A DNA stretch of 64,000 bases, from contig JAAYAW010000085.1 in assembly GCA_012719135.1 (NCBI GenBank), positions 2,067-66,066 of the forward strand, written 5' to 3'. A program made the translations under genes and the position numbers. This stretch comes from Chloroflexota bacterium. GTDB lineage: Bacteria; Chloroflexota; Anaerolineae; UBA1429. The notes beneath the pieces were generated by a model. It ran no database searches. It worked only from the letters and a program-made list of their open reading frames with translations, and was not told the DNA's origin. Below, in pieces: positions 1,528 to 56,102 of the stretch; the stretch's first letter is position 1; each line of letters starts with the position of its first letter.

Positions 1528-2514
1528 ATGCCGCGAATACCGATAGAGTCGCTGCAGCCCGGCGCTTCCGTGAGCAAGCAGGTGTTCCTTTTGAGGGACA
1601 AATCGCTGAGCCCCACACGTTCTGGCGTAAGCCTCATGCGCCTGGTCCTGGGCGACCGCTCCGGGTCTATCCCCGGCATCATGTTTGACGCTCCAGCGAA
1701 CTGGTTTCAGCAACTGGAGGTGGGACAGGGCGTGGAGGTGACCGGCAAGATCGAGGAGTACCGGGATACGCTGCAAATCCGGCTGGATCGGGTTACTCGC
1801 ACATCGATTGAGGACCTGGGGGAGTTCCTCCCCGGTGCCAGCAGGCCGATACCGGCCATGCAACGTGAACTGGACCAGGTGATCGCGTCGGTCCAGCACC
1901 CCGATCTGAGCCGGCTGCTCCTCGCGATACTGGGCCAGGGCAGTGAACTGCGAGGCGCCTTCTGCGAGGCTCCCGCAGCCAAGACGCTGCACCATGCCTG
2001 CCGCGGAGGTCTGCTCGAGCATACTCTCAGCGTCGTCAGCCTCGCCAACGCACCGTTCGAGGAGCGCACGCCTTCCACCCTGGAAGACGGAGGGCAAAGC
2101 CTCATGCGCGATCTCGCCATCACGCTGGGACTGCTTCACGATCTGGGCAAGGTGCGCGCCTATGACCGGACGACCTTTGAGCTGACAGACGAAGGTGCTC
2201 TCTTTGGGCACCTGTATATGAGCGCCTCTCTGGTGGAGGCCGCCATCGCGCTGTTGCCCGGCTTTGATCCTAATCTACGGCTTCGCGTCATCCACGGGAT
2301 CCTGGCGCACCACGGGACGCTCGAGCACGGCTCTCCGGTGGTGCCGATGACGCGCGAGGCGATTGCCGTTCACCACGCGGATGCCATGGATGCTGATCTG
2401 CAGGGGGCCACCGAGGTCATGGCGCGCCCGGATGCCCAGACCGGCGCATACACGGCCTACAGCCCCATGCACGAGACGCGTCTGTACCGCGGATTCGGCG
2501 ACGAGGTCATCTAG
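1528..2514 (+). CDS. yhaM: 3'-5' exoribonuclease YhaM-like (OB-fold + HD domain)
   Basis: N-terminal OB-fold (VLGDRSGSIPGIMFD...EVTGKIEEYRD) followed by an HD phosphohydrolase domain (HTLSVVSLAN...LLHDLGKV...HGILAHHG). Start moved to the ATG at 1528 (MPRIPIE), which is preceded by AAAGGAGAAG; the ORF track begins earlier at 1483. Confidence 0.8.
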   Translation: MPRIPIESLQPGASVSKQVFLLRDKSLSPTRSGVSLMRLVLGDRSGSIPGIMFDAPANWFQQLEVGQGVEVTGKIEEYRDTLQIRLDRVTRTSIEDLGEFLPGASRPIPAMQRELDQVIASVQHPDLSRLLLAILGQGSELRGAFCEAPAAKTLHHACRGGLLEHTLSVVSLANAPFEERTPSTLEDGGQSLMRDLAITLGLLHDLGKVRAYDRTTFELTDEGALFGHLYMSASLVEAAIALLPGFDPNLRLRVIHGILAHHGTLEHGSPVVPMTREAIAVHHADAMDADLQGATEVMARPDAQTGAYTAYSPMHETRLYRGFGDEVI

Positions 2515-2522
2515 GGCGCAGG

Positions 2523-3227
2523 CTAGATGACGCGCCCGCCATAGACCGGTATCGCCGCGCCATTGACGGCCTCTCCCGTGGGCCCGCAGAGCATCAGCAT
2601 CACCCGTGCAAGATCTTCCGCGGCGACTCGATCCCGCGCTTCGTCCGCGGATCTCTCCGCGACGATCGTGCTGGGGAGGATGACGTTGGCGCGGATTCCC
2701 TGTGCGCCATAGTCCACCGCGATCGAGCGCGTCAGGGCCACCAGGCCCGCCTTGGATACATTGTAGGGCGCCTGCCCCCCTCCGAGGCGCTCCACCGCGC
2801 GTGACCCGATGTGTATGATCCGGCCCCCGCCCTGGGCGATCATGGGCGGTATGACGGCACGGCTGATGTTGAATGCGGTGTGTAGGTTGGTCGCGATCAT
2901 CGCGTGCCAGACTTCATCGCTCAGGTCGGCCAGCTTTACGCCCCCGCCCCAGGTGCCCACCAGATTCAGCAGGCAGTCCACGCGGCCCCAGCGGTCGGTG
3001 ATCGCCCGAACGGCGTCCCCGGCTTCCTGAGGCCGAGAGAGGTCGGCCTGGCAACAGATCGCTTCGTCATCGGTGAGCCCCAGCCTGTCCATCAGGGCGC
3101 GCAACGGCTCCAACCGGCGCGCGAGGAGGCCCAGTCTTGCCCCCTCATCCCTAAAGGTCCGTGTCACCGCCTCTCCAAGCGTGCCACTCGCTCCGGCTAT
3201 CAGGACGATCTGCTCGGCAACCATCAT
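2523..3227 (-). CDS. short-chain dehydrogenase/reductase (SDR) family oxidoreductase
   Basis: 234 aa; glycine-rich NAD(P)-binding motif IAGASGTLGEA and the catalytic YxxxK (YNVSK) typical of classical SDRs. Confidence 0.85.
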   Translation of the reverse strand: MMVAEQIVLIAGASGTLGEAVTRTFRDEGARLGLLARRLEPLRALMDRLGLTDDEAICCQADLSRPQEAGDAVRAITDRWGRVDCLLNLVGTWGGGVKLADLSDEVWHAMIATNLHTAFNISRAVIPPMIAQGGGRIIHIGSRAVERLGGGQAPYNVSKAGLVALTRSIAVDYGAQGIRANVILPSTIVAERSADEARDRVAAEDLARVMLMLCGPTGEAVNGAAIPVYGGRVI

Positions 3228-3229
3228 CG

Positions 3230-4045
3230 TTAGCCTCCTGTCTTCTCCGCCTGACGTATGCAGCGGTCGATCCAGAGCACGATCTCATCACGGCTGCACC
3301 TGGGGGCGCCGTGCAGGGCGGTGCTGTCCAGCAGCCAGGTTGCGTTCTCTCCGGCGGAGCGCAGCAGAGCTTCCGAGGCTGCTCTTGGCACGATGGTATC
3401 GCGACCGCAGTGGACGATGAGCAACGGGCAAGCGGCGCGGTCGCCGATGACATCGATCGGCCAGCGCCCATGGTCGATGCGCGCCGATAGCCGGGCTCCC
3501 AGCAGCCGAGCGATGGGCCTGAGGGCCCCCGGCCGCCAGGTTCGGGCGGGCATCCAGGGAGGGCCGGCCGGGCACGATAGGCTGACGACACCATCCAGCC
3601 GAGCGCCCTGAGCGGCGGCGAAGATGGTTGCCGCTGCCCCGAGCGATACGCCAACGCCCAGCACGTGGGCGTAGCCGAGGTGGCGAGCCTCGGCCACGAG
3701 CTCCGAGAAGCATCGGCCTGCTCGGGACCAGTCTAGCGGTGCGACGCCGGTGCTCTGGCCGTGTCCCGGCTGATCGTAGGCGATCAGGTCCCAGTGTGGG
3801 AGCAGGATGTCGGCCAGTCCTAGCAGCTTGTGATCGTCCTTGCGCTTGAGCAGGCCGTGAGAGAGTATCACGACGCTTTTCCGCCCGCGATCTACGTGCC
3901 AGTATGAGATGCGTTCGCCGTCACCCAGAGCGAGCTCTCTCACCTGGGCATCTTGAGGAAGCTTGCCCCGGCCGAGCCACACATAGCGTGCGAGCACCCA
4001 GGCCAGCAGTCCCATGGCGCTCAGAAGATACAGAGGTTTCTTCAT
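3230..4045 (-). CDS. alpha/beta hydrolase fold protein
   Basis: 271 aa; signal-anchor-like N-terminus, HG oxyanion motif (ILSHGLL), nucleophile elbow GVGVSLGAA. 3-nt gap to the SDR gene downstream, so likely co-transcribed. Confidence 0.75.
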   Translation of the reverse strand: MKKPLYLLSAMGLLAWVLARYVWLGRGKLPQDAQVRELALGDGERISYWHVDRGRKSVVILSHGLLKRKDDHKLLGLADILLPHWDLIAYDQPGHGQSTGVAPLDWSRAGRCFSELVAEARHLGYAHVLGVGVSLGAAATIFAAAQGARLDGVVSLSCPAGPPWMPARTWRPGALRPIARLLGARLSARIDHGRWPIDVIGDRAACPLLIVHCGRDTIVPRAASEALLRSAGENATWLLDSTALHGAPRCSRDEIVLWIDRCIRQAEKTGG

Positions 4046-4109
4046 GGCGCCATTCTAGCGCCCGCACCATGTCTGGCAAGCCCGCCTCCAGGCATCACAG
4101 GCGGCAGCT

Positions 4110-4138
4110 TTGACGGTGGGCATCCCCGAGCGTAGAAT
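4110..4138 (+). promoter_or_regulatory. putative sigma70-type promoter TTGACG-17-TAGAAT for the DUF362 gene
   Basis: ttgacg (4110-4115), 17-nt spacer, tagaat (4133-4138), about 45 nt upstream of the ATG at 4186. In the divergent intergenic region. Confidence 0.5.
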
Positions 4139-4185
4139 CTGACCATTCTGCTTGACGAGTACCAATGAGACAGGGGGTGGCCTGC

Positions 4186-5292
4186 ATGACCACACGTGCA
4201 CGCGTTGCCGTGCTCAAGACCCAGCCTGAAAGCGTGCTGGCCGATTACGACCGGCTGCTTGGTTTGGCCCAGGTGGAACGCTATCTTCCTCTCGATAGTA
4301 CCGTGATTCTCAAGGATAACATCTCGTGGCACTACCCGTTCCCCAGCGCAAACACCACGCCCTGGCAGCTTGAGGGCACGGTTCTTGCGCTGCAACGCCG
4401 GGGCTATGGACAGCAGGTGTGCGTGCAGAACAAGACGGTGGTCACCAACGCCTTCAAGGGCGAGGACCTGAACAACTATGTGCCGATCTTTAGGCGGTAC
4501 AACATCCCCGTCCTCTACAACTTTAAGGACTCGGACATAAAGTGGAAGGTGTATGAGCCCAGAGCACGGATGAACGCACTGGATCGCGTCTACCCGGAAG
4601 GGATCCTCATGCCCGAGTACTTTAAGGGCAAGAGCATCGTGCACCTCCCCACGGTCAAGTGCCACATCTATACCACAACCACTGGCGCGATGAAGAACGC
4701 CTTCGGCGGCCTCCTGAACACCAAGCGGCACTATACGCATTCCTGGATTCACGAGACACTGGTGGATCTGCTGGCGATCCAGAGGGAGATTCACTCGGGG
4801 ATCTTTGCGGTGATGGATGGCACAACGGCAGGGAACGGAACTGGCCCGAGGGTGATGAAGCCCGTGGTGAAGAACGTGATTCTCGCCAGCGGCGATCAGG
4901 TGGCCATTGACGCGATCGCTGCCAAGCTGATGGGCTTTGATCCAATGTCGATCGGATACATCCGGCTGGCGCACGAACAGGGCTTGGGGGTGGGCGATCC
5001 GCGAGAGATCGAGGTGGTTGGCGACGATATCGCCGGTGAGAGCTGGGGTTTCAGCGTGGGCGTCAATCTGCACCGGGCCCTGGGATGGCTCTCCTGGTAC
5101 GGGCCCACCAAGGTTCTCCAGAGGCTGCTCTTTCACACGCCGCTCGTGCATGCCATGAGCTTTGTTTCGGAAGCCTACCATGACTACTTCCGCTGGCCTC
5201 TGCACGAGCGACACGTCTATGAACAGTGGCGCCAGGCGACGCCCTGGGGGCAGCTCTTTGATCGCTATCTAGCGGAGGGGCACCTGCGTTAG
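4186..5292 (+). CDS. DUF362 domain-containing protein (putative Fe-S/redox-associated)
   Basis: About 368 aa matching the conserved DUF362 core: LPTVKCHIYTTTTGAMKNAFGGLLNTKRHYTHSWIHETLVDLLAIQ. Start chosen at ATG 4186 after AGGGGGTGG; the track ORF starts at the GTG at 4165. Confidence 0.7.
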   Translation: MTTRARVAVLKTQPESVLADYDRLLGLAQVERYLPLDSTVILKDNISWHYPFPSANTTPWQLEGTVLALQRRGYGQQVCVQNKTVVTNAFKGEDLNNYVPIFRRYNIPVLYNFKDSDIKWKVYEPRARMNALDRVYPEGILMPEYFKGKSIVHLPTVKCHIYTTTTGAMKNAFGGLLNTKRHYTHSWIHETLVDLLAIQREIHSGIFAVMDGTTAGNGTGPRVMKPVVKNVILASGDQVAIDAIAAKLMGFDPMSIGYIRLAHEQGLGVGDPREIEVVGDDIAGESWGFSVGVNLHRALGWLSWYGPTKVLQRLLFHTPLVHAMSFVSEAYHDYFRWPLHERHVYEQWRQATPWGQLFDRYLAEGHLR

Positions 5293-5324
5293 CCTGCCGG
5301 CGCTGGAGCTGCGAGGAAAGCAAC

Positions 5325-5351
5325 GGGCCTCAGGGTTTACCCCTGAGGCCC
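5325..5351. terminator. GC-rich hairpin (11-bp perfect stem GGGCCTCAGGG/CCCTGAGGCCC) between convergent DUF362 and pyrG
   Basis: Perfect inverted repeat with a 5-nt loop located between two convergent stop codons (5292 and 5361). T-rich tract only on the minus side. Likely a bidirectional intrinsic terminator. Confidence 0.45.
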
Positions 5352-5360
5352 GACCTGTTA

Positions 5361-6968
5361 TCAGCCTTTGCTGGATCGGCCGATAGCGGCCCTGATGAAC
5401 TCGCGAAAGAGCGGATGCGGGCGATCCGGGCGCGTCTTGAACTCCGGATGGAACTGGCAGCCAACCATCCACGGGTGATCGCCGACCTCGCCCATCTCTA
5501 CGAGCATGTCGTCGGGCGAAACTCCACTCCAAACCAACCCCGCCTCGCGCAGTTGCTCGCGGTAATCGTTGTTGATCTCCCAGCGGTGGCGATGGCGCTC
5601 GTCTACCTGACCGGCATCGTAAGCAGACTGCGCCAGCGTGCCGCTCTGGAGCACGCAGGGATACCGCCCGAGCCGCATCGTTCCGCCCTTGTCTGCGATT
5701 CCCCGCTGTTGCAGCATGAGATCGACCACCGGATGCGGTGTGCTCTCGTCCATCTCGGTGCTGTTCGCTCCCTCCAGCCCCAGCACATTCCGGGCGTAGT
5801 CAATGACCATGACCTGAAGACCCAGGCACAGCCCAAGATAGGGCACGCGGTTCTCCCGCGCGTAGCGGGCCACGGCGATCATCCCTTCGACTCCCCGTGG
5901 CCCAAAGCCGCCGGGCACGATGATCCCGTCTGCCAGAGCCACGGACTCTGAAATGGCGCCGTGCTCCAGATCCTCAGAGTTCACCCAGTCAATGGATACG
6001 CGCTTGCCGTGCGCGGCGGCGGCGTGCACCAGCGCCTCCGCGACGCTCAAGTACGCATCATGCAGGCCCACGTATTTCCCGACCAGCGCTACGCGCACCT
6101 CCCCTTGGGGATTGAGCAGCCGGGACACCACGTCTCGCCAGCCGTTTAGCTGGGGCTCGGCGGCGTCGAGCTTGAGCCTCTCGACGAGATAGTCGCCCAG
6201 ACCGTACTCCTCCAGCGTGATCGGAACTTGATAGATCGTGCGGGTGGTCTCCAGAGGAATCACCGCTTTGCGATCTACGGCACCAAAGAGGGCGATTTTG
6301 TCGAGGAGGTCGTCGCCGATTGGATAGTCGGCGCGGCACAGGAGCACGTCCGGGCTGATGCCGATGCTGCGGAGCTCTGCAACGCTGTGTTGCGTCGGTT
6401 TGGTCTTGAGTTCGTCGGTGGCTCCGATGTGAGGCAGAAGCGTGATATGAACGTAGCAGCAGTTGTCGCCGCCCACGTCTCGACGCATTTGGCGGATCGC
6501 CTCCAGGAATGGCAGGCTCTCGATGTCGCCCACGGTGCCACCGATCTCAACAATGGCGACATCGGCGTTGCTTTCCTCTGCCGACGACCGTATGTGATGC
6601 TTGATCTCGTCAGTGATGTGGGGAATAACCTGGACGGTGCCACCGAGAAAGTCGCCATGGCGCTCGCGGGCGATCACTTCGGCATAGATGCGCCCGCTGG
6701 TCACATTGGCATGACGCCCGAGTTGCACATCGGTGAAGCGTTCATAGTGGCCGAGATCCAGGTCCGTCTCGGTGCCATCCTCCAGCACGTACACTTCGCC
6801 ATGCTGAAGGGGGGACATGGTGCCGGGGTCAAAGTTGATGTAGGGATCCAGTTTTTGCAGCGTGACACGCACGCCGCGGGACTTTAGGATCCGGCCGATC
6901 GAGGCTGCGGCCACGCCCTTGCCGACTGAAGAGACGACGCCACCGGTCACAAAAACAAAGCGGGTCAT
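5361..6968 (-). CDS. pyrG: CTP synthase
   Basis: Strong match throughout: N-terminal MTRFVFVTGGVVSSVGKG..., synthetase domain, and C-terminal glutamine amidotransferase (GLCLGLQ...HRHRWE). The track ORF extends 57 codons upstream to a GTG. The conserved start MTRFVFV is at track-derived coordinate 6968. Confidence 0.95.
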   Translation of the reverse strand: MTRFVFVTGGVVSSVGKGVAAASIGRILKSRGVRVTLQKLDPYINFDPGTMSPLQHGEVYVLEDGTETDLDLGHYERFTDVQLGRHANVTSGRIYAEVIARERHGDFLGGTVQVIPHITDEIKHHIRSSAEESNADVAIVEIGGTVGDIESLPFLEAIRQMRRDVGGDNCCYVHITLLPHIGATDELKTKPTQHSVAELRSIGISPDVLLCRADYPIGDDLLDKIALFGAVDRKAVIPLETTRTIYQVPITLEEYGLGDYLVERLKLDAAEPQLNGWRDVVSRLLNPQGEVRVALVGKYVGLHDAYLSVAEALVHAAAAHGKRVSIDWVNSEDLEHGAISESVALADGIIVPGGFGPRGVEGMIAVARYARENRVPYLGLCLGLQVMVIDYARNVLGLEGANSTEMDESTPHPVVDLMLQQRGIADKGGTMRLGRYPCVLQSGTLAQSAYDAGQVDERHRHRWEINNDYREQLREAGLVWSGVSPDDMLVEMGEVGDHPWMVGCQFHPEFKTRPDRPHPLFREFIRAAIGRSSKG

Positions 6969-7100: not shown

Positions 7101-7131
7101 GTTGACACGCTCGCACGGCTGCTCGTATACT
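7101..7131 (+). promoter_or_regulatory. putative promoter TTGACA-18-TATACT upstream of the MFS gene
   Basis: ccgTTGACAcgctcgcacggctgctcgTATACTcgcc about 30 nt upstream of the 7160 start codon. Coordinates are +/-1. Confidence 0.45.
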
Positions 7132-7159: not shown

Positions 7160-8419
7160 ATGTCCGACCAACACCCTTGGATACGCCGTAACCTGGTTCT
7201 CCTGACGATCGACTTTGTGTCTTTCTCGGTGGGTTTCACCTTCTTCGACCCGCTCGTCATCCTGCCGGCGTTCACGCGGCTCCTCACCGGCTCTGAGTTG
7301 TTGGTGGGTGCCCTCGCGGCACTCCGGATCGTGTTCATTACACTGCCCCAGGTGTTCGCCGCATCCGTTCTGGCCGCCAGTCCCAAGAAGCAACCGCTCC
7401 TCGTGTGGTCAAGCGCCGGTGGCAGGCTCCCCGTTGTCATTATGGCGTTGGTCACGCTCTTGTTCGGATCCCGATTTCCCTGGCTGGTCGTGGGTGTGAT
7501 GCTTCTCGCCGTGGCTTTGTTCAACACGTCGGAAGGGCTTAACTCGATCACCTGGCCCGACATCGTGGGCAAGCTGCTGCCGGCCCGCATACGGGGGCGC
7601 TTTCTGGGCACCGGGCAGTTGCTCTCATCGTTAGGCGCGCTGGCGGCCGGTTACCTGGTTCAACGGATCCTCGCATTGGAGGAACTGCCCTTTCCGCGGA
7701 GCTGGGCCCTGTTGTTCGGCTGCGCATCGATCGGCCTCTTTGGCTCCGTCCTGGCGTGCTCCCTGCTGCGCGAGCGCCCCGGCGCAACCGCCTCCGCTCA
7801 TGTTGATGTGCGGCGCAGCATCGCCTCGCTCGGCAGGTATCTGCGCGCGGATGCGCGGCTGCGGCGTGTTGTCATTGTCGAGATTCTGTTGGGCATCGCC
7901 AGTTCGGTCTTTACCTTCTTTGTACTGAGGGCGCAAGACCTGGTCCCCCAGGCACAGAGCGCGCTCGGTACCTACCTCATCGTACAGAACCTGGGCGGCA
8001 TGCTCGCGGCCGCGATATGCGGCAACATCGTGGATCACGTGGGCAGCTGGGCGGCCGTGCGCGTCACAACCGTGATGGAGACGCTCACTCTGGCCCTCGT
8101 CACCTTTGCGCCTCTTCTGGGCGCGACCTACCTGGTGTACCTCGGCGCCTTTGCGTTGCTCGGTTTCGTAACGGGCAGTTCATGGTGGACCTTTACCGCC
8201 TACCTCATGGACATCGCCGATGAGGAGCACCGCCCGTCGTATCTCGCCGCCAGCGGTGTGCTCAAGGCCCCGCTGTTTGTGGCCTCGCTGCTCGCCGGCG
8301 TCGGCTACCGTGCTGCCACGCCTGAAGTGCTCTTTGGCCTGGCGCTGCTCTTTTCAATTGCGGCGCTGGCCGTGAGCCTGACTCTGACGCGCATGCGCGC
8401 TGGCGTACCCGTCGAATGA
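7160..8419 (+). CDS. MFS transporter
   Basis: 419 aa, about 12 predicted hydrophobic helices, typical MFS loop 2-3 motif region. Divergent from pyrG. Confidence 0.8.
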   Translation: MSDQHPWIRRNLVLLTIDFVSFSVGFTFFDPLVILPAFTRLLTGSELLVGALAALRIVFITLPQVFAASVLAASPKKQPLLVWSSAGGRLPVVIMALVTLLFGSRFPWLVVGVMLLAVALFNTSEGLNSITWPDIVGKLLPARIRGRFLGTGQLLSSLGALAAGYLVQRILALEELPFPRSWALLFGCASIGLFGSVLACSLLRERPGATASAHVDVRRSIASLGRYLRADARLRRVVIVEILLGIASSVFTFFVLRAQDLVPQAQSALGTYLIVQNLGGMLAAAICGNIVDHVGSWAAVRVTTVMETLTLALVTFAPLLGATYLVYLGAFALLGFVTGSSWWTFTAYLMDIADEEHRPSYLAASGVLKAPLFVASLLAGVGYRAATPEVLFGLALLFSIAALAVSLTLTRMRAGVPVE

Positions 8420-49241: not shown

Positions 49242-49270
49242 TTGACAACCATACCCCCCTATGGTATATT
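49242..49270 (+). promoter_or_regulatory. putative promoter TTGACA-17-TATATT upstream of the CoADR-fusion gene
   Basis: ccTTGACAaccatacccccctatggTATATTcgc. It overlaps the 5' end of the track ORF (49261), arguing for the downstream ATG 49309, which is preceded by GGGGAGG. Confidence 0.55.
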
Positions 49271-49308
49271 CGCACAGATTCTCGCATAGCTTGCGTTGGG
49301 GAGGCTTC

Positions 49309-51801
49309 ATGAGCACAGTCGTGATCGTTGGGGGAGTGGCCGGAGGGGCGACCGCAGCCACGCGTCTGCGCAGGCTGGACGAGTCGCTGGAGATCGTACT
49401 GATCGAGCGAGGGGAACACATCTCGTTTGCCAACTGCGGCCTACCCTATCACGTCGGCGGTGTCATATCCAGCCGTGAGAGTCTCTTGATGGCCACCCCT
49501 GAGACGCTCATCGGCAACTACGCCGTGGACGTACGCGTGCGCCAGGAAGTGACCGCGATCAGACCCGAGGACCGCGTGGTCACGGTGCGGGACTTGGTCT
49601 CGGGGAGAGAGTATGAGCAGCATTATGACAAGCTGATTCTCTCGCCGGGCGCTACGCCCGTGGTGCCTCCTCTGTCCGGCCTGGACCTGGACGGGGTGTA
49701 CACCCTGCGGAATATCCCGGACATGGATGCGATCATCGATCGCATCGGCCGCCCGGATGCCAAGGATGCGCTGGTCGTGGGCGGCGGGTTCATTGGCCTG
49801 GAGATGGCAGAAAACCTTCACGCTCGCGGCCTCTCTGTAACGATCGTCGAGATGCTGCCTCAAGTCATGTCCACGATCGATCCGGACATGGCCAGCCTGG
49901 TGCACCGCGAGCTCTTGCGCAACAACATCCGGCTGGGCCTTGGGGACGGGCTGCAGTCTGTTGAGAAGACCGAATCCGGTCGATTGAAGGTCAACTTATC
50001 CAGCGGGCGCTCCGGCGAGGCCGACGTCGTCCTATTGGCGATCGGCGTGCGACCAGAGTCGCGCCTGGCTGTGGAAGCGGGGCTGGAAGTTGGTCCTCGC
50101 GGGCACATCGTCGTAGACGAGCAGATGCGCACCTCTCACCCGGACATCTATGCCGTGGGAGATGCCGTTCAGGTAAAGGATCCCATCACCGGCCGGATGA
50201 CGGGCATACCGCTGGCGGGCCCTGCCAACCGGCAGGCGCGCATCGCGGCGGACGCCATTGCCGGCCGTGACTCGGCCTATGTGGGAACGATCGGCACGGC
50301 CATCGTGAAGGTGTTCGATCTGACGGTCGCCAGCACAGGCGCAAGCAGCCGTGCCCTGGACCAGGCCGGAATCAGCTATGCCACGAGCATCACCCAGAGT
50401 TACGATCACGCCAGCTACTACCCCGGGGGCACCTACCAGACCATCAAACTGATCTACGCCCCAGAGGGTGGCCGATTGCTGGGCGCGCAGGCGGTGGGAA
50501 TCGCGGCGATAGATCGCACGATCGACGTTCTAGCCACTGCTCTGACGAACCGAATGACCGTGCACGATCTCGAGCATCTTGAGCTGGCCTACGCTCCACC
50601 CTACGGCGCGGCCAAGGACCCGGTCAACATCGCCGGGTACGTGGCTGCCGGGCGCCTGCGCGGCGACTCCACGGCGGCTACCTGGCGGGATGTGTTGGAC
50701 CGGGATCCCGAAGAGACGGGCTTGCTGGACGTCCGGACCGATATCGAGTGGAATCTGGGGCACCTGGAGGGCGCGATCCATATCCCGCAGGACCAGCTGA
50801 GGGGGCGCTTGAACGAGATGGATCGTGGACGCAGGTGGATCGCCTACTGCTCGGTGGGTCAGCGATCCTACGCGGCTGAGCGGACTCTGAAGCAGAACGG
50901 GTTTGAGGCCGCGACTCTCAGTGGCGGATACACCAACTTTATCGCTGTGACGGAGAAGCAGGACAACTGGGATAGCTGGCGTCCTGCAGGCGAGGAGGGC
51001 CCGGCTATGGCAGAGGAGATGCAGTCGCGTCAGGGCGGCGTTCTTGTGCCGGCCCCTGGCGCGGCACTACCGGTCATCGAGCTGGATGCCTGCGGTCTTC
51101 AGTGCCCCGGGCCGATCATGGCGGTGTACCGTCGAATGCAGGAGCTGCCAGAGGGCCAACGGCTGCAGGTGGAGGCCACGGATCCCGGCTTTGTGCGCGA
51201 TATCGCCACCTGGGCGCAGCAGACCGGCAACTCGCTCCTGGACCTGCGGCAAGAGAAGGGGCGGATCACGGCTTTGCTGGCCAAGGGAAAGGCAGCGCCG
51301 GAACTGCGCGTATCAGAGAGCGGCGCGCTACCCAAGGCCAAGACGCTCATCGTCTTCTCGGGGAACCTGGATCACGCGATGGCGGCCATGATCATCGCCA
51401 ACGGAGCGGCCGCCATGGGCCAGCCCGTGAGCATCTTTTTCACCTTCTGGGGCCTGAACATCCTGCGCCGCCGCGATGGCGTTCACGTGAAAAAGAACCT
51501 GATTGAGAAGATGTTTGGCCTGATGATGCCTCGCGGAGCGCGGGCCCTCAAGCTTTCCAGGCTGAACATGGGTGGTGCGGGCACGGCGTTGATGAAGAGC
51601 GTCATGCGCTCCAAGAACATCGACTCGTTGGAGTCGCTGATCGCCTCGGCTCAGCAGGCCGGAGTGCGCCTGATCGCTTGCCAGATGACCATGGACATGA
51701 TGGGCATCAAGGAAGAGGAACTGATCGATGGCGTCGACATCGGCGGGGTGGCCACGATGATCGGGGAGACGGACAAGGGCAACGCAACCTGGTTCGTATA
51801 A
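49309..51801 (+). CDS. multidomain CoA-disulfide reductase / rhodanese / TusA / DsrE fusion (probable NAD(P)H-dependent persulfide-polysulfide reductase)
   Basis: FAD/NAD Rossmann motifs (VVIVGGVAGG; VVGGGFIGLE), CoADR redox Cys (SFANCGLPY), rhodanese active site (AYCSVGQRS), TusA CPGP motif (LDACGLQCPGPIM), and a C-terminal DsrE/DsrF-like domain (KTLIVFSGNLDHAMAA...). Confidence 0.85.
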   Translation: MSTVVIVGGVAGGATAATRLRRLDESLEIVLIERGEHISFANCGLPYHVGGVISSRESLLMATPETLIGNYAVDVRVRQEVTAIRPEDRVVTVRDLVSGREYEQHYDKLILSPGATPVVPPLSGLDLDGVYTLRNIPDMDAIIDRIGRPDAKDALVVGGGFIGLEMAENLHARGLSVTIVEMLPQVMSTIDPDMASLVHRELLRNNIRLGLGDGLQSVEKTESGRLKVNLSSGRSGEADVVLLAIGVRPESRLAVEAGLEVGPRGHIVVDEQMRTSHPDIYAVGDAVQVKDPITGRMTGIPLAGPANRQARIAADAIAGRDSAYVGTIGTAIVKVFDLTVASTGASSRALDQAGISYATSITQSYDHASYYPGGTYQTIKLIYAPEGGRLLGAQAVGIAAIDRTIDVLATALTNRMTVHDLEHLELAYAPPYGAAKDPVNIAGYVAAGRLRGDSTAATWRDVLDRDPEETGLLDVRTDIEWNLGHLEGAIHIPQDQLRGRLNEMDRGRRWIAYCSVGQRSYAAERTLKQNGFEAATLSGGYTNFIAVTEKQDNWDSWRPAGEEGPAMAEEMQSRQGGVLVPAPGAALPVIELDACGLQCPGPIMAVYRRMQELPEGQRLQVEATDPGFVRDIATWAQQTGNSLLDLRQEKGRITALLAKGKAAPELRVSESGALPKAKTLIVFSGNLDHAMAAMIIANGAAAMGQPVSIFFTFWGLNILRRRDGVHVKKNLIEKMFGLMMPRGARALKLSRLNMGGAGTALMKSVMRSKNIDSLESLIASAQQAGVRLIACQMTMDMMGIKEEELIDGVDIGGVATMIGETDKGNATWFV

Positions 51802-51821
51802 CCTTTGGCGCGCAAAGAGGT

Positions 51822-51847
51822 GGGGCCGTCCCATTGCGGACGGCCCC
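51822..51847. terminator. hairpin GGGGCCGTCC-cattgc-GGACGGCCCC between convergent genes
   Basis: 10-bp perfect stem. Minus-strand T-rich tail (CCTCTTTGCGCGCC) after the stop of the lytic transglycosylase gene. Confidence 0.45.
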
Positions 51848-51855
51848 GCCTCTCG

Positions 51856-54339
51856 TCACTCCTCGGCTTCGATAGCGGCAGGCCGGTAGATCTGGCGGTA
51901 CCGGCTGTACTGCTCGTAGATGTAGCGCACATAGTCCTGCGCCTGTTGAGACGGCAGCGTCTCGAAGAAGAGATCATGGTCCACGATCGGCTGCCCGCCG
52001 GTCCAGTTGGCCACATTTCCGGGCCCCGCGTTGTAGCCCACCAGCGCCGCGATCCAATCCCGGTCGTACATGCTCAGGAGCAGCGCATAGTACCAGGCGC
52101 TGTAGCGCAGATTCAGAACGGGGCGCAGAAGCAATTCGTCGGCATACTCTTCTGGGCCGATCTGCGTGGCTATCCACTCGCCCGTGGCCGGCATGATCTG
52201 GGCCAGGCCGAGCGCTCCGGCAGACGAGCGTGCCTCGGCGTTGAACAGGCTCTCCTGGCGGATCAGCGCGAGCATCAGCAGGGGATCCAGATCATAGTAG
52301 CTGGCATACTCCTGCACGAGCCGGCCGTACAGATCCGGATAGGCGAGCGCGTTCAGTGCTTGGGGGATCTCCGCCATGCCAGCATCGCGCGCCAGCCTGG
52401 CGAGACGTTGGCCGCACCAGATCATCGTCGGGTAGGCTTCCCAGCGCACGGCGGACTCGGCCAGGTGCAGCACCTCGTAGGGGCTGTCCTTGATCTGCTG
52501 CTGCAGAGCCTGTGTGGAGAGGTTCGCCTCGGTTGACCAGCCGAGCGCGTGAAGGGCATCGGCCTCCTGGTAGCCCGGATCCTCGAGAAGGGTCACTCCG
52601 GTGGATGTCGTCCAGGAGCTGGCCCATACGCGGAGGCCCTCCCAGTCCGCTTCAGAGAGCGTGTCTGGAGCGAGCGTTGCGGAGAGCCCGGATGCCAGCC
52701 GTGGCGGCGCGTGCTGGAGCAGATCGGCCGCCCGCAGGCCATAGTACGAATCGGGAGAGATGCGCACGGCCTCATGCCAGTAGACGTCCGCTTGCTCCAG
52801 TTGACCCGCCTGCTTGGCCGCCAGGCCGATCCACACGACCAGGCGAACCCGCAAGGGAACGTCCGTTGTGACGTCCAGCCGCTCCCTCCACGTCGTACTG
52901 GCGGTGTACGCATCACCGGAGGCATAGTACGCCAGTCCTTGCCGGAAGGCGGCGTCACCGGCGCGATCATCGCTGGGGTACTTTTCGGCCAGTAGCGCAT
53001 AGTAGCTCGCGGCCTGCGTCCAGTTGCCGGCGTGTTCCGAGGCCACAGCTGCCTCCCAGAGCGCCTCTGCGGCACGCGGATGTTCCGGATGGTTGACGTA
53101 GAACTCGTGGTAGAACGGCGCCGCGTCGCTTCCGCTGGCGCCGATCGTCCAGGCATTGGCGAACCAGGCGTCGGCCAGCAGGGCCTGGTCGCCAGCCGAT
53201 TCGATCGCCACAGTGTAGTGAGCCAGGGCCTCCTCGTACTGCCCCTTCTTCGCGAGCGTCAGGCCAAGGTAATAGTGTGCCTCAGCAGCCCCACGCTCGG
53301 GCTCGTCGTGGAGGTAATAGTTCAGGTACTCCAGAGCCAGGTTGTACTCTTGCGAGTGGTAGTGGATCTTGCCCCTTGTGAGATCCGTCAGAACGAGCGA
53401 TGTGCTCGTCGGAGTAATCGATTCGGTGCTCCGGACGGTCTCCGATTCCGGCAGCGCCGCCAACTCCTGCAGGGACAGGAAAGCCGCGAAGGACTCCGGC
53501 GCAGTGTTGGCGACATGGAGGAAGGATGCCACCGCCTCCTCTTCATGGCTGGCCTCCCGCAACGTCTCTCCCTTGTAGTGGCTGATGAGGGCGCGATAGT
53601 CCGGAAGCTGCGAAAACGCCAGAATGCGGTCATACACCTCGATGGCGCTGTTGGGATCGCTGTTGGCGCGATAGGCCGTGGCGAGCTCGCTCAGTACCTC
53701 GGCGCGGAACGAGGGCTGCAGCCGGTCGGCGTCAATTGATTCGAGCGCTCGGATCTGGCTGGTGATATCGCCCACGGCTTTGTGATCTCGAGCGATTCGC
53801 CACCAGACGTAGGGCGCCGCACGGCCGTCTGCGGACACATAGGCTTCAAGTGCTGTCGCTGCGGCACGCCAGTTACCGACGGCTTCCTGGGCGCTCCCCA
53901 GGAGGCCAAGGGCCTCCGCGTGCAAGGGCGCGGGCGCATCCACGGCCACGGCCCAGGAGGCTTGTGCAATCGCCATGTCTGCCTGGCCGGCGCGCAGATA
54001 GAGCCTCCCCAGCTCTAGCACGTGGGCCACGCGCTGCTCATCGGGGCTCTGCTCCACGATCTGTCGCCATAGCTCGGTGGCGCGTTCCAGATCCCCTTCC
54101 GTAGCCGCTGTCCGTGCCTCGGAGATCAGGGCCACGAGAGCGCTGTCCACGGGAACGGTCTCGGTGGGCTCTGAGGCCGTTTGGTCCGTGGGCTGGAGCG
54201 TCTCGGCAGCCGCAGTGGGGAGCTCCACGGTCTCCGGCGCCAGCGCCTCCTGGGGGGCCTCCCGCCCAACGGCACATCCCACCAACAATGTGGCCCACAG
54301 GGCGGCCGCCAGCACGAGGCGTAGGGGCCTCAGCGTCAT
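51856..54339 (-). CDS. TPR-repeat lytic murein transglycosylase lipoprotein (Slt-like)
   Basis: Lipoprotein signal with lipobox (LLVGC); long TPR/superhelical region; C-terminal SLT domain (LIRQESLFNAEARSSAGALGLAQIMPATGEW). Confidence 0.85.
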   Translation of the reverse strand: MTLRPLRLVLAAALWATLLVGCAVGREAPQEALAPETVELPTAAAETLQPTDQTASEPTETVPVDSALVALISEARTAATEGDLERATELWRQIVEQSPDEQRVAHVLELGRLYLRAGQADMAIAQASWAVAVDAPAPLHAEALGLLGSAQEAVGNWRAAATALEAYVSADGRAAPYVWWRIARDHKAVGDITSQIRALESIDADRLQPSFRAEVLSELATAYRANSDPNSAIEVYDRILAFSQLPDYRALISHYKGETLREASHEEEAVASFLHVANTAPESFAAFLSLQELAALPESETVRSTESITPTSTSLVLTDLTRGKIHYHSQEYNLALEYLNYYLHDEPERGAAEAHYYLGLTLAKKGQYEEALAHYTVAIESAGDQALLADAWFANAWTIGASGSDAAPFYHEFYVNHPEHPRAAEALWEAAVASEHAGNWTQAASYYALLAEKYPSDDRAGDAAFRQGLAYYASGDAYTASTTWRERLDVTTDVPLRVRLVVWIGLAAKQAGQLEQADVYWHEAVRISPDSYYGLRAADLLQHAPPRLASGLSATLAPDTLSEADWEGLRVWASSWTTSTGVTLLEDPGYQEADALHALGWSTEANLSTQALQQQIKDSPYEVLHLAESAVRWEAYPTMIWCGQRLARLARDAGMAEIPQALNALAYPDLYGRLVQEYASYYDLDPLLMLALIRQESLFNAEARSSAGALGLAQIMPATGEWIATQIGPEEYADELLLRPVLNLRYSAWYYALLLSMYDRDWIAALVGYNAGPGNVANWTGGQPIVDHDLFFETLPSQQAQDYVRYIYEQYSRYRQIYRPAAIEAEE

Positions 54340-55181: not shown

Positions 55182-55211
55182 ATTATAGCGACGTGCCACG
55201 CTCCCCGTCAA
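55182..55211 (-). promoter_or_regulatory. putative promoter TTGACG-18-TATAAT (minus strand) for the methyltransferase-SLT operon
   Basis: Minus strand reads aTTGACGgggagcgtggcacgtcgcTATAATccgcacc. Back-to-back with the plus-strand promoter below. Confidence 0.5.
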
Positions 55212-55237: not shown

Positions 55238-55267
55238 TTGACAGCGCCCAAGCGCCGGGCCTATACT
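55238..55267 (+). promoter_or_regulatory. putative promoter TTGACA-18-TATACT for the GNAT gene (near-leaderless)
   Basis: TTGACAgcgcccaagcgccgggccTATACTcgcgcgcGTGgac. The GTG start codon is only 7 nt downstream of the -10 element. Confidence 0.5.
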
Positions 55268-55274
55268 CGCGCGC

Positions 55275-56102
55275 GTGGACAGCTACACTATCCGCGAGGC
55301 GTCTACCAGTATCGATGATGCCGAGGCTCTCTCTCGCGTTGAGGCCGTCACGCTCGGAGATAGCGACCTCTCTGCGAACGAGATGCTTGCCGTCCTCTCT
55401 CAGCCCGGACAGTATATCTACCTCGCCCACGATCTCGACGGTACGTGTATCGGCATGCTGGCCAGCTTTGACAGGCATTGTGAAACCGGGGAACGCCTGG
55501 AGCTGGACATGCTTGGCGTTGTCGCACCGTGGCGTGGACGGGGCGTGGCTCGCAACCTGGTAGGCCGCGCGATTGACGACGGACGATCCAGAGGGTGTAC
55601 AGAGTACCGCGCCGTCGTTGCCGTTGACAATCTCGCCAGCAGGCGTGTGTTCGAACGTTGCGGGCTGGCATCCCGTGGGCCAGGCTACCGCTTGATGACG
55701 CGCGTGTTCGCGGGTTTTGCCTCCGTGCCGCTTTTGCCCGATGGCTGGGCACAGGAGTCCACACCGGCCCTGGCGGAGCGCGATTGGGCGTATCCTGTGG
55801 GGTCCGGTTGGTGCTCCGCCTGGGAGGGGATCAGGCTGCTGGACGCCTCAGGGAAGCAGGCCGCCGTGGTGGCCCTGCAGCGTGTGGACACGATCGCCTA
55901 CTCCGGCTACTGGATCGAAGGCCTCTGGAGCCAGAATCTCGCCAGCGGCCAGCTCGCGCTGGATGTGGCCGCTGAGTATGCCAAGAGCTGTGAGCTCGAC
56001 GAAGTGGGGATGCTGATTCCTATGGGAGATGATCTCTGGCAGGCCGCCATGGCTGCTGGCTACGAACACGCCGGCGACTATGGCGTCCTGGTGGCGGGTT
56101 GA
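55275..56102 (+). CDS. GNAT family N-acetyltransferase with C-terminal extension
   Basis: Acetyl-CoA binding motif (LGVVAPWRGRGVARNLV). A C-terminal region of about 130 aa is of unknown function. Confidence 0.6.
   Translation: MDSYTIREASTSIDDAEALSRVEAVTLGDSDLSANEMLAVLSQPGQYIYLAHDLDGTCIGMLASFDRHCETGERLELDMLGVVAPWRGRGVARNLVGRAIDDGRSRGCTEYRAVVAVDNLASRRVFERCGLASRGPGYRLMTRVFAGFASVPLLPDGWAQESTPALAERDWAYPVGSGWCSAWEGIRLLDASGKQAAVVALQRVDTIAYSGYWIEGLWSQNLASGQLALDVAAEYAKSCELDEVGMLIPMGDDLWQAAMAAGYEHAGDYGVLVAG

Follow-up and report, generated by a model that had tools for sequence, protein, structure and literature searches.

A four-domain CoADR-rhodanese-TusA-DsrE protein of an Anaerolineales bacterium: a candidate sulfane-sulfur reductase with a predicted CsoR-family operator in its promoter

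Within a 64,000-nucleotide stretch of a Chloroflexota genome (assembly GCA_012719135.1, contig JAAYAW010000085.1, positions 2,067 to 66,066; hereafter "the window", meaning the whole stretch), a single gene encodes an 830-aa protein in which a CoADR-type flavoprotein reductase is followed by rhodanese, TusA and DsrE-like domains. This raises the question of what chemistry such a fusion carries out, and under which control it stands. Our preferred answer, to which we assign a probability of roughly 60% on the strength of sequence comparisons, is that the protein is a self-contained NAD(P)H-dependent sulfane-sulfur (persulfide or polysulfide) reductase with a tethered sulfur relay, and that in this clade its gene is repressed by a regulator of the CsoR family. 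The gene and the parts of its product, with window coordinates, are as follows.

49309-51801 (stop codon included), plus strand: coding sequence of the four-domain protein, 830 aa (open reading frame (ORF), Pfam, ortholog alignment and independent gene call)
49315-50604, plus strand: CoADR-type FAD/NAD(P)H disulfide oxidoreductase with its dimerisation domain, residues 3-432 (Pfam)
49435-49437, plus strand: codon of the redox cysteine Cys43, within the CoADR-type domain
50713-50943, plus strand: rhodanese domain, residues 469-545, active-site loop C514-S-V-G-Q-R
50848-50850, plus strand: codon of Cys514, rhodanese domain
50950-51072, plus strand: variable linker 1, residues 548-588
51076-51279, plus strand: TusA domain, residues 590-657, with C599PGP
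51103-51105, plus strand: codon of Cys599, TusA domain
51283-51339, plus strand: variable linker 2, residues 659-677
51340-51789, plus strand: DsrE-like domain DrsE_2, residues 678-827 (Pfam)
51679-51681, plus strand: codon of Cys791, DrsE_2 domain

An initial annotation of this locus had described an 830-aa CoADR-rhodanese-TusA-DsrE fusion, and Pfam agrees on every domain and on their order: Pyr_redox_2 (residues 3-307, E 1.8e-61), Pyr_redox_dim (residues 331-432, Pyr_redox being matched as well), Rhodanese (residues 469-545, E 4e-14), TusA (PF01206, residues 590-657, E 3.9e-19) and DrsE_2 (PF13686, residues 678-827, E 2.6e-58), all five far over threshold. The sequence includes the Rossmann motifs GGVAGG and VVGGGFIGLE, and a glutamate at the end of the second Rossmann strand (VTIVEM) suggests that the cofactor is NADH. 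The whole protein has only five cysteines, four of which are distributed one per domain (SFANC43GLPY, YC514SVGQRS, C599PGP and IAC791QMT). We aligned 117 full-length homologs (49-100% identical), and all 117 keep C43, C514, C599 and C791; the redox cysteine, the rhodanese cysteine and the TusA CPGP motif singled out beforehand are thus invariant, and no homolog has lost a catalytic cysteine on closer alignment. The fifth, C595, is a second TusA cysteine (CGLQCPGP, residues 595-599, window positions 51091-51105) present in 92 of the 117 homologs (79%) and swapped for R, T or S in the others, including a close Anaerolineales relative. Since it is replaced in close relatives, C595 is not essential; with C599 it forms a CxxxC motif in which it could serve as an optional resolving cysteine, as the Pelobacter paper suggests (PMC3543383).

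Across the same alignment, domain lengths vary by at most one residue, unlike the linkers: linker 1 ranges from 29 to 67 residues with a mean top-residue frequency of 0.23, and linker 2 from 15 to 31 residues with a frequency of 0.33. Such variable linkers between fixed domains fit what would be expected of carrier domains mounted on flexible tethers.

The N-terminal two domains (residues 1-547) are closely related to characterised persulfide reductases, namely Shewanella loihica Npsr (3NTA, E 6e-159), Enterococcus faecalis CoAPR (EfCoAPR; 8A56, E 7e-158) and Bacillus anthracis CoADR-RHD (3ICR, E 1.7e-152), with 49% identity to each of Npsr and EfCoAPR over ~545 residues. C43 is aligned with the redox cysteine of Npsr and with C42 of EfCoAPR, and C514SVGQR with CQVGLR of Npsr and C508HSGLR of EfCoAPR; the class I pyridine-nucleotide disulfide oxidoreductase fold, the SFxxCxLPY cysteine and the CxxGxR rhodanese loop are all in place. 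In EfCoAPR, the rhodanese C508 is persulfidated in vivo, C42 and C508 are both required, and the two active sites, ~27 Å apart, are bridged by swinging of the bound CoA; its gene is derepressed via CstR (PMC9405070). The known CoADR-RHD enzymes (CoAPR 8A56, Npsr 3NTA, B. anthracis 3ICR/3ICS) end after the rhodanese, whereas here TusA and DsrE-like domains are appended; the additional single-domain rhodaneses of E. faecalis, RhdA and RhdB, are encoded by separate genes. Of the two appended domains, the former matches Escherichia coli TusA (1DCJ, 3LVJ), and the latter is closest among solved structures to 3PNX and also matches 2QS7, both uncharacterised and both with a cysteine aligned with C791.

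We propose a reaction course by analogy with CoAPR, Npsr and the B. anthracis CoADR-RHD. In this proposal C791 of the DsrE-like domain and C599 of TusA, carried on the variable linkers, would take up sulfane sulfur as cysteine persulfide and hand it to C514 of the rhodanese, from where the swinging pantetheine arm of bound CoA would move it to C43 beside the flavin. There, H2S would be freed and a C43-S-S-CoA mixed disulfide formed, which FADH2 would reduce before NAD(P)H re-reduces the FAD. We infer both the direction of this sulfur flow and its dependence on CoA, as well as the preference for NADH. Physiologically, the enzyme would serve to detoxify sulfane sulfur or keep it in balance, and would act in thiol-disulfide stress.

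The relay half of the protein has counterparts in several known systems. Staphylococcus aureus CstA has the Rhd, TusA and DsrE content of the C-terminal three domains, and YrkE (DsrE), YrkF (Rhd) and YrkI (TusA) of Bacillus subtilis and B. licheniformis provide the same three domain types as separate proteins; persulfide transfer from Rhd to TusA was demonstrated in CstA, and the CstA and Yrk systems are controlled by the CsoR-family proteins CstR and YrkD (PMC9918477). CstA lacks a flavoprotein reductase and belongs to an oxidative pathway (SQR, CstB persulfide dioxygenase), whereas here the relay is joined to a reductase. Cys-to-Cys sulfur transfer between members of the same domain families is likewise known from the Rhd_2599-TusA-DsrEFH-DsrC relay of Allochromatium vinosum and from DsrE3A/TusA of Metallosphaera cuprina; these carriers are separate proteins feeding the oxidative DsrAB and sHdr systems, whereas in the fusion the flow presumably runs toward reduction. 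Given the identity to Npsr and EfCoAPR and the CstA-like domain content, the persulfide relay welded to an NAD(P)H-driven reductase that had been put forward at the outset is the best-supported interpretation of the protein sequence.

The second half of the question, i.e., the control of the gene, led to the intergenic region upstream, where four elements are recognised.

49242-49247, plus strand: -35 hexamer TTGACA (promoter match; TTGAC invariant in six orthologs)
49251-49267, no strand assigned: predicted CsoR-family operator ATACCCCCCTATGGTAT, filling the promoter spacer and overlapping the -10 hexamer
49265-49270, plus strand: -10 hexamer TATATT with TG extension (TATATT, TATACT or TATAAT in orthologs)
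49298-49304, plus strand: Shine-Dalgarno sequence GGGGAGG (GGAGG kept in the closest orthologs)

The TTGACA-17-TATATT promoter proposed for this gene is of sigma-70 type, with an 11/12 consensus match, a 17-nt spacer and a TG extension, and its -10 hexamer ends 38 nt before the ATG. The entire window has only six sites this good (at least 11/12), where Markov-1 random sequence would be expected to give 0.03, and the organism evidently uses near-consensus promoters. In the intergenic alignment of six orthologs, the sole conserved island comprises the -35 hexamer, the spacer core and the -10 hexamer, and its invariant blocks are TTGAC, TACCCCC and GTATA, with no others. As to the start of the gene, a longer ORF from an ATG at 49261 was ruled out, as this ATG lies 5' of the -10 hexamer, the ortholog alignments begin at the Met at 49309, and the near-identical contig of another metagenome-assembled genome (GCA_036774445.1) was independently called as 830 aa.

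The spacer element ATACCCCCCTATGGTAT consists of a TAC-N9-GTA pseudo-palindrome with a C6 tract (generalised site pattern ATACCCCC-N4-GGTAT). It is single in the window, where no further match with up to three mismatches was found (0.00 expected). CsoR-family operators are typified by a TAC/GTA pseudo-palindrome, a stretch of four or more G or C and a position overlapping the promoter (PMC10318464), all of which are present here. The right half of the element coincides with the -10 hexamer, and its conservation could stem from the promoter; the left half is conserved within the spacer, where the promoter imposes no sequence constraint. A close parallel is the cst operator of Streptococcus mitis, ATATACCCTTATGGGGTATAT, which governs the rhdB-coaP-rhdA operon encoding a CoA-persulfide reductase (PMC8643695): this operator has, like the one described here, the TAC-N9-GTA spacing, a C6/G6 tract and an overlap with promoter elements, and shares 15 of 21 positions with the window site on the best (opposite) strand. 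More generally, the CoAPR gene of streptococci and enterococci stands under CstR, with an operator of the same TAC-N9-GTA geometry. Unlike in the S. mitis cst system, the regulator gene is not linked to its target in the window.

To consider the element beyond this clade, public metagenome contigs were scanned for exact copies of the 17-mer, which yielded at least 120 loci (L090-L209). Among the 120 listed, 92 include a CsoR-family ORF, and at 82 a CsoR-family gene has its conserved RxxGQ codon no more than 200 nt downstream of the 17-mer, one 17-mer-linked ORF having been verified as PF02583 with Pfam. This location in the promoters of CsoR-family genes suggests that the 17-mer is a genuine CsoR-family operator. 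The regulators at the listed loci are C-H-C copper-CsoR-like in 44 cases, C-H-H in 22 and C-Y-C in 21, the C-Y-C type being devoid of the copper-ligand His, as in CstR. At three loci (L128, positions 2238-5500, L141 and L190) the 17-mer stands over an operon of DrsE_2, DsrM-like, TusA, DsrK-like and CsoR-family C-Y-C genes, in which the DsrM-like product is a membrane cytochrome (Nitrate_red_gam) and the DsrK-like product a CCG/Fe-S protein, and which is partially seen at two others (L172, L198). By its gene content, this operon is predicted to tie a sulfur relay to a membrane heterodisulfide-reductase-type module, not to a flavoprotein. At another locus (L097, positions 3331-4094), the 17-mer is followed by a single-domain rhodanese gene and then by a CoADR-type gene cut by the contig end, a layout akin to the enterococcal and streptococcal cst-like operon. 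Wherever sulfur-carrier genes stand under the 17-mer, the regulator that can be seen in the operon belongs to the C-Y-C type, and the similarity of the targets makes a persulfide sensor the likelier partner of the fusion gene.

Ten of the metagenome loci without a CsoR gene were inspected with Pfam and held mainly unrelated or unannotated ORFs, so that the 17-mer there probably represents chance matches, except for a Pyr_redox_2 gene at one of them. At this locus (L162, positions 7427-8244; a contig of 64% GC, window-like) the 17-mer lies 94 nt upstream of another Pyr_redox_2 oxidoreductase, truncated by the contig end, whose protein gave no match to the CoADR domain of the window protein at E<=1e-4.

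In the regulation that we propose, a CsoR-family repressor bound to ATACCCCCCTATGGTAT would occlude the near-consensus sigma-70 promoter, and the enzyme would be made solely upon inactivation of the sensor, most plausibly by reactive sulfur species, with copper as the alternative inducer. This operator is restricted to the Anaerolineales clade of the window (the window itself, L001, L003, L008, L011 and L106); among the 80 species loci examined (see below), the TAC-(C/G run)-GTA motif was not found upstream of ~75 homologs of other clades, nor upstream of the arsR genes adjacent to some of them. These latter encode an ArsR/HTH_5 regulator of ~95 aa that adjoins the four-domain gene at 35 of the 80 species loci (L012-L088; Bacillota and others); in most cases it directly precedes that gene in the same orientation, 2-215 nt away (e.g., L062, regulator at 3321-3602 and fusion at 3627). 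Three of its cysteines (C25, C36 and C44 in the numbering of L062) are kept in 27-30 of 38 sequences. Among characterised proteins, PagR and BigR are the closest to this regulator, which probably serves the four-domain enzyme as a dedicated thiol-based sensor. The ten small neighbours analysed with Pfam at loci without ArsR (MazE, DUF134, GNAT, DUF4190, etc.) included no recurrent family, and at the two Bacteroidota loci that were inspected no MarR gene was seen beside the fusion. Four Bacillota loci (L025, L026, L060 and L072) have a thioredoxin gene with the WCGPC motif no more than 1.5 kb away from the fusion.

In Bacteroides fragilis, the four-domain protein BF638R_0572 is repressed by the MarR-type regulator BmoR, encoded directly downstream, and is ~50-fold up in a bmoR mutant; the BF638R_0572 mutant itself is of heightened sensitivity to diamide (PMC6158253). 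Three unrelated repressor families (CsoR, ArsR type and the MarR type of BmoR) thus appear to gate the same enzyme in different phyla, which argues for an inducible, stress- or substrate-type role over a constitutive housekeeping one.

How widespread, then, is this protein, and how new? A protein search returned at least 8000 matches, and nearly all of the best 120, which were inspected, are 800-860 aa long with every domain. One of these matches (P0016, 716 aa, 78% identical, on a 256-kb contig) had no DrsE_2/DsrE match in Pfam, with a query coverage of 80%; this may reflect either a naturally occurring three-domain form or a gene call that was cut short. When a single genome of each species was scanned with the Rhd-TusA-DsrE part, relatives were confirmed in at least 595 species genomes of many phyla, mostly anaerobic. 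The best 80 of these, which are the loci referred to above, belong to the Chloroflexota, Bacillota (Clostridium, Desulfosporosinus, Halanaerobium, Anoxybacillus and others), Spirochaetota, Planctomycetota, Armatimonadota, Bacteroidota, Fusobacteriota, Fibrobacterota and Omnitrophota, and 73 of the 80 have an intact four-domain ORF, the remaining seven being interrupted or cut by contig ends. The possibility of a misassembled join of two genes, raised in the initial annotation, could be dismissed: GC content and GC at third codon positions (GC3) are even over all domains, and the same architecture recurs in hundreds of species and in complete genomes such as that of Anoxybacter fermentans (CP016379).

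The same four-domain protein was described in 2012 from Pelobacter carbinolicus (Pcar_0429), for which a reduction from NADH via FAD releasing sulfide, possibly as a terminal elemental sulfur (S0) reductase, was proposed (PMC3543383), and in 2018 from B. fragilis, where the domains of BF638R_0572 were placed at residues 14-440 (CoADR), 462-540 (Rhod), 589-657 (TusA) and 671-825 (DrsE_2) (PMC6158253). Both have the same domains in the same order as the window protein, with nearly identical boundaries in B. fragilis, and the mechanism proposed for Pcar_0429 matches the one put forward here. From this architecture and from the Bacteroidota homologs among our loci (L070, L086), the window protein is a further member of a previously noted family, neither its architecture nor its mechanism being new; the functional reading given in the initial annotation is sound but restates this published hypothesis. 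What distinguishes the window from the B. fragilis case is the CsoR-family operator, the lack of an adjacent regulator and the phylum (Chloroflexota, Anaerolineales). We regard the CsoR-family operator and the swapping of regulators over phyla as new, if modest, findings.

Several observations weigh against a persulfide reductase under a CsoR-family persulfide sensor. The suggestion that a CstR/SqrR-like regulator should be sought was borne out as far as a CsoR/CstR-family operator within the promoter, but the regulator gene itself is missing from the 64-kb window: tblastn with the CsoR-like and ArsR-type proteins of homologous loci did not find it, and a six-frame profile search of the window with hidden Markov models built from 89 CsoR-family and 38 ArsR-type sequences gave nothing (best E ~2). 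With no CsoR-family gene in the window, the cognate regulator would have to be unlinked to the fusion gene. The 17-mer is, moreover, common to three CsoR subfamilies, so that the operator sequence does not distinguish a copper from a persulfide sensor, and the copper-type C-H-C and C-H-H regulators outnumber the CstR-like C-Y-C ones. When the C-Y-C regulators were used in a profile search, the named hits were solely Thermodesulfobacteriota, Deltaproteobacteria and Syntrophaceae, with no link to Anaerolineae. On the side of the enzyme, the protein misses the equivalog cutoffs for CoA-disulfide reductase (TIGR03385, 465.5 bits, cutoff 578.8) and for DsrE2 (NF047629, 93.7 bits, cutoff 210), and neither these names nor a substrate can therefore be transferred. 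No sulfur-metabolism genes were found beside the fusion gene, its neighbours being housekeeping genes. A literature search retrieved no enzymatic assay of any four-domain member, only the two genomic or genetic descriptions cited above, and the diamide phenotype in B. fragilis is equally compatible with general disulfide stress.

Other explanations differ from the preferred one mainly in physiological role or substrate and are not separable from it by sequence. The same chemistry could serve energy or redox balance instead of stress defence, the protein acting in the cytoplasm as the terminal reductase for S0 or polysulfide, or as an electron sink in fermentation, re-oxidising NADH and yielding H2S. 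This is the explicit proposal of the Pelobacter genome paper (PMC3543383), and it draws on the best PDB match, Npsr, having been characterised in a context of sulfur respiration in Shewanella, and on a family concentrated in anaerobic fermenters and sulfur or thiosulfate reducers (Halanaerobium, Desulfosporosinus, Clostridia, Anaerolineae); a strong repressor-gated promoter is also compatible with induction by substrate. Yet the gene stands alone amid housekeeping genes, neither membrane components nor functions for polysulfide uptake are encoded close to it, its homologs in E. faecalis, S. mitis and B. fragilis sit in stress regulons, and carriers for protein-bound persulfides are not obviously required in bulk S0 reduction, so that we consider such a catabolic role unlikely, if worth keeping in view. 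The diamide sensitivity of the BF638R_0572 mutant was read by its authors as a sign of thiol homeostasis (PMC6158253), i.e., of a CoA- or protein-disulfide reductase whose C-terminal domains are redox accessory or targeting modules, and CoA-disulfide reductase models are indeed the top NCBIfam matches, with a thioredoxin gene near the fusion at four loci. It is hard to explain without sulfur transfer, however, why a cysteine is kept in each of the three sulfurtransferase-type domains of 117 homologs; in addition, plain CoADRs have no rhodanese domain, those CoADR-RHD enzymes that share both cysteines act as persulfide reductases (PMC9405070), and the TIGR03385 score is under the equivalog cutoff, all of which makes general thiol-disulfide homeostasis a doubtful account of the protein.

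Least probable of all, and in our view very improbable, is an NAD(P)H-dependent thiosulfate or tetrathionate reductase, in which the DsrE-like and TusA domains would hold a Cys-S-thiosulfonate for reduction by the flavoprotein. Thiosulfonate transfer with tetrathionate is documented for M. cuprina DsrE3A/TusA, the family occurs in thiosulfate reducers such as Halanaerobium congolense, and in B. fragilis the gene shares its regulation with an operon for a DoxDA thiosulfate:quinone oxidoreductase (PMC6158253); the domain in question, however, is of the DrsE_2/YrkE type (~94 bits against the DsrE2 equivalog cutoff of 210), and no YeeE thiosulfate transporter is adjacent in the loci examined. It is tempting to go one step further than a sulfane-sulfur reductase for small molecules, and to speculate that the TusA and DsrE-like arms remove persulfides not just from small thiols but also from other proteins. 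The fusion would then be an NADH-driven protein depersulfidase, the counterpart in anaerobes of CstA plus CoAPR, wired independently to sensors of the CsoR family, the ArsR type and the MarR type; we offer this only tentatively, as a rather unlikely extension. As a variant of it, the sensor in Anaerolineales may be a copper-type CsoR, which would tie copper stress to sulfane-sulfur reduction.

Returning to the sulfane-sulfur reductase that we prefer, an apt annotation of the gene would be "persulfide reductase-type CoADR-RHD fused to TusA and DsrE", not "CoA-disulfide reductase". Anaerobes very commonly encode members of this family, Bacteroides and Clostridia of the gut among them, and each member appears to unite an entire cysteine-persulfide relay with a reductase of its own, which is relevant to the disposal of sulfane sulfur in anaerobes without SQR and persulfide dioxygenase, and to the possibility of TusA/DsrE carriers running toward reduction. 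The CsoR-family operator within the promoter constitutes a testable regulatory prediction at a locus that is otherwise an ordinary member of its family.

Around the fusion gene, the chromosome is occupied by a housekeeping block (glmS, DUF512 radical SAM, cmk and pseudouridine synthase) whose flanking gene order is retained in Anaerolineales relatives with 59-79% protein identity. The two direct neighbours, a Peptidase_S11 D-Ala-D-Ala carboxypeptidase gene upstream and a TPR-SLT lytic transglycosylase gene downstream, are both on the minus strand, and the fusion gene is thus monocistronic. The reductase and SLT genes converge, and the 54-nt gap that separates their stop codons is filled by one further element.

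51806-51858, no strand assigned: GC-rich hairpin between the convergent stop codons (RNA fold -40.6 kcal/mol)

This hairpin has a z-score of -6.3 (0 of 200 shuffles equally stable), a 16-bp GC-rich core stem and no T tract, and is likely a bidirectional terminator.

Elsewhere in the window, the five other sigma-70-type sites with an 11/12 match lie at 7102, 40563 and 55238 on the plus strand, and at 55211 and 21304 on the minus strand. Two of them, 55238 (plus) and 55211 (minus), are face-to-face and described as nearly fully overlapping, with footprints at 55238-55267 and 55182-55211, and this pair is located directly 5' of an acetyltransferase gene at 55275.

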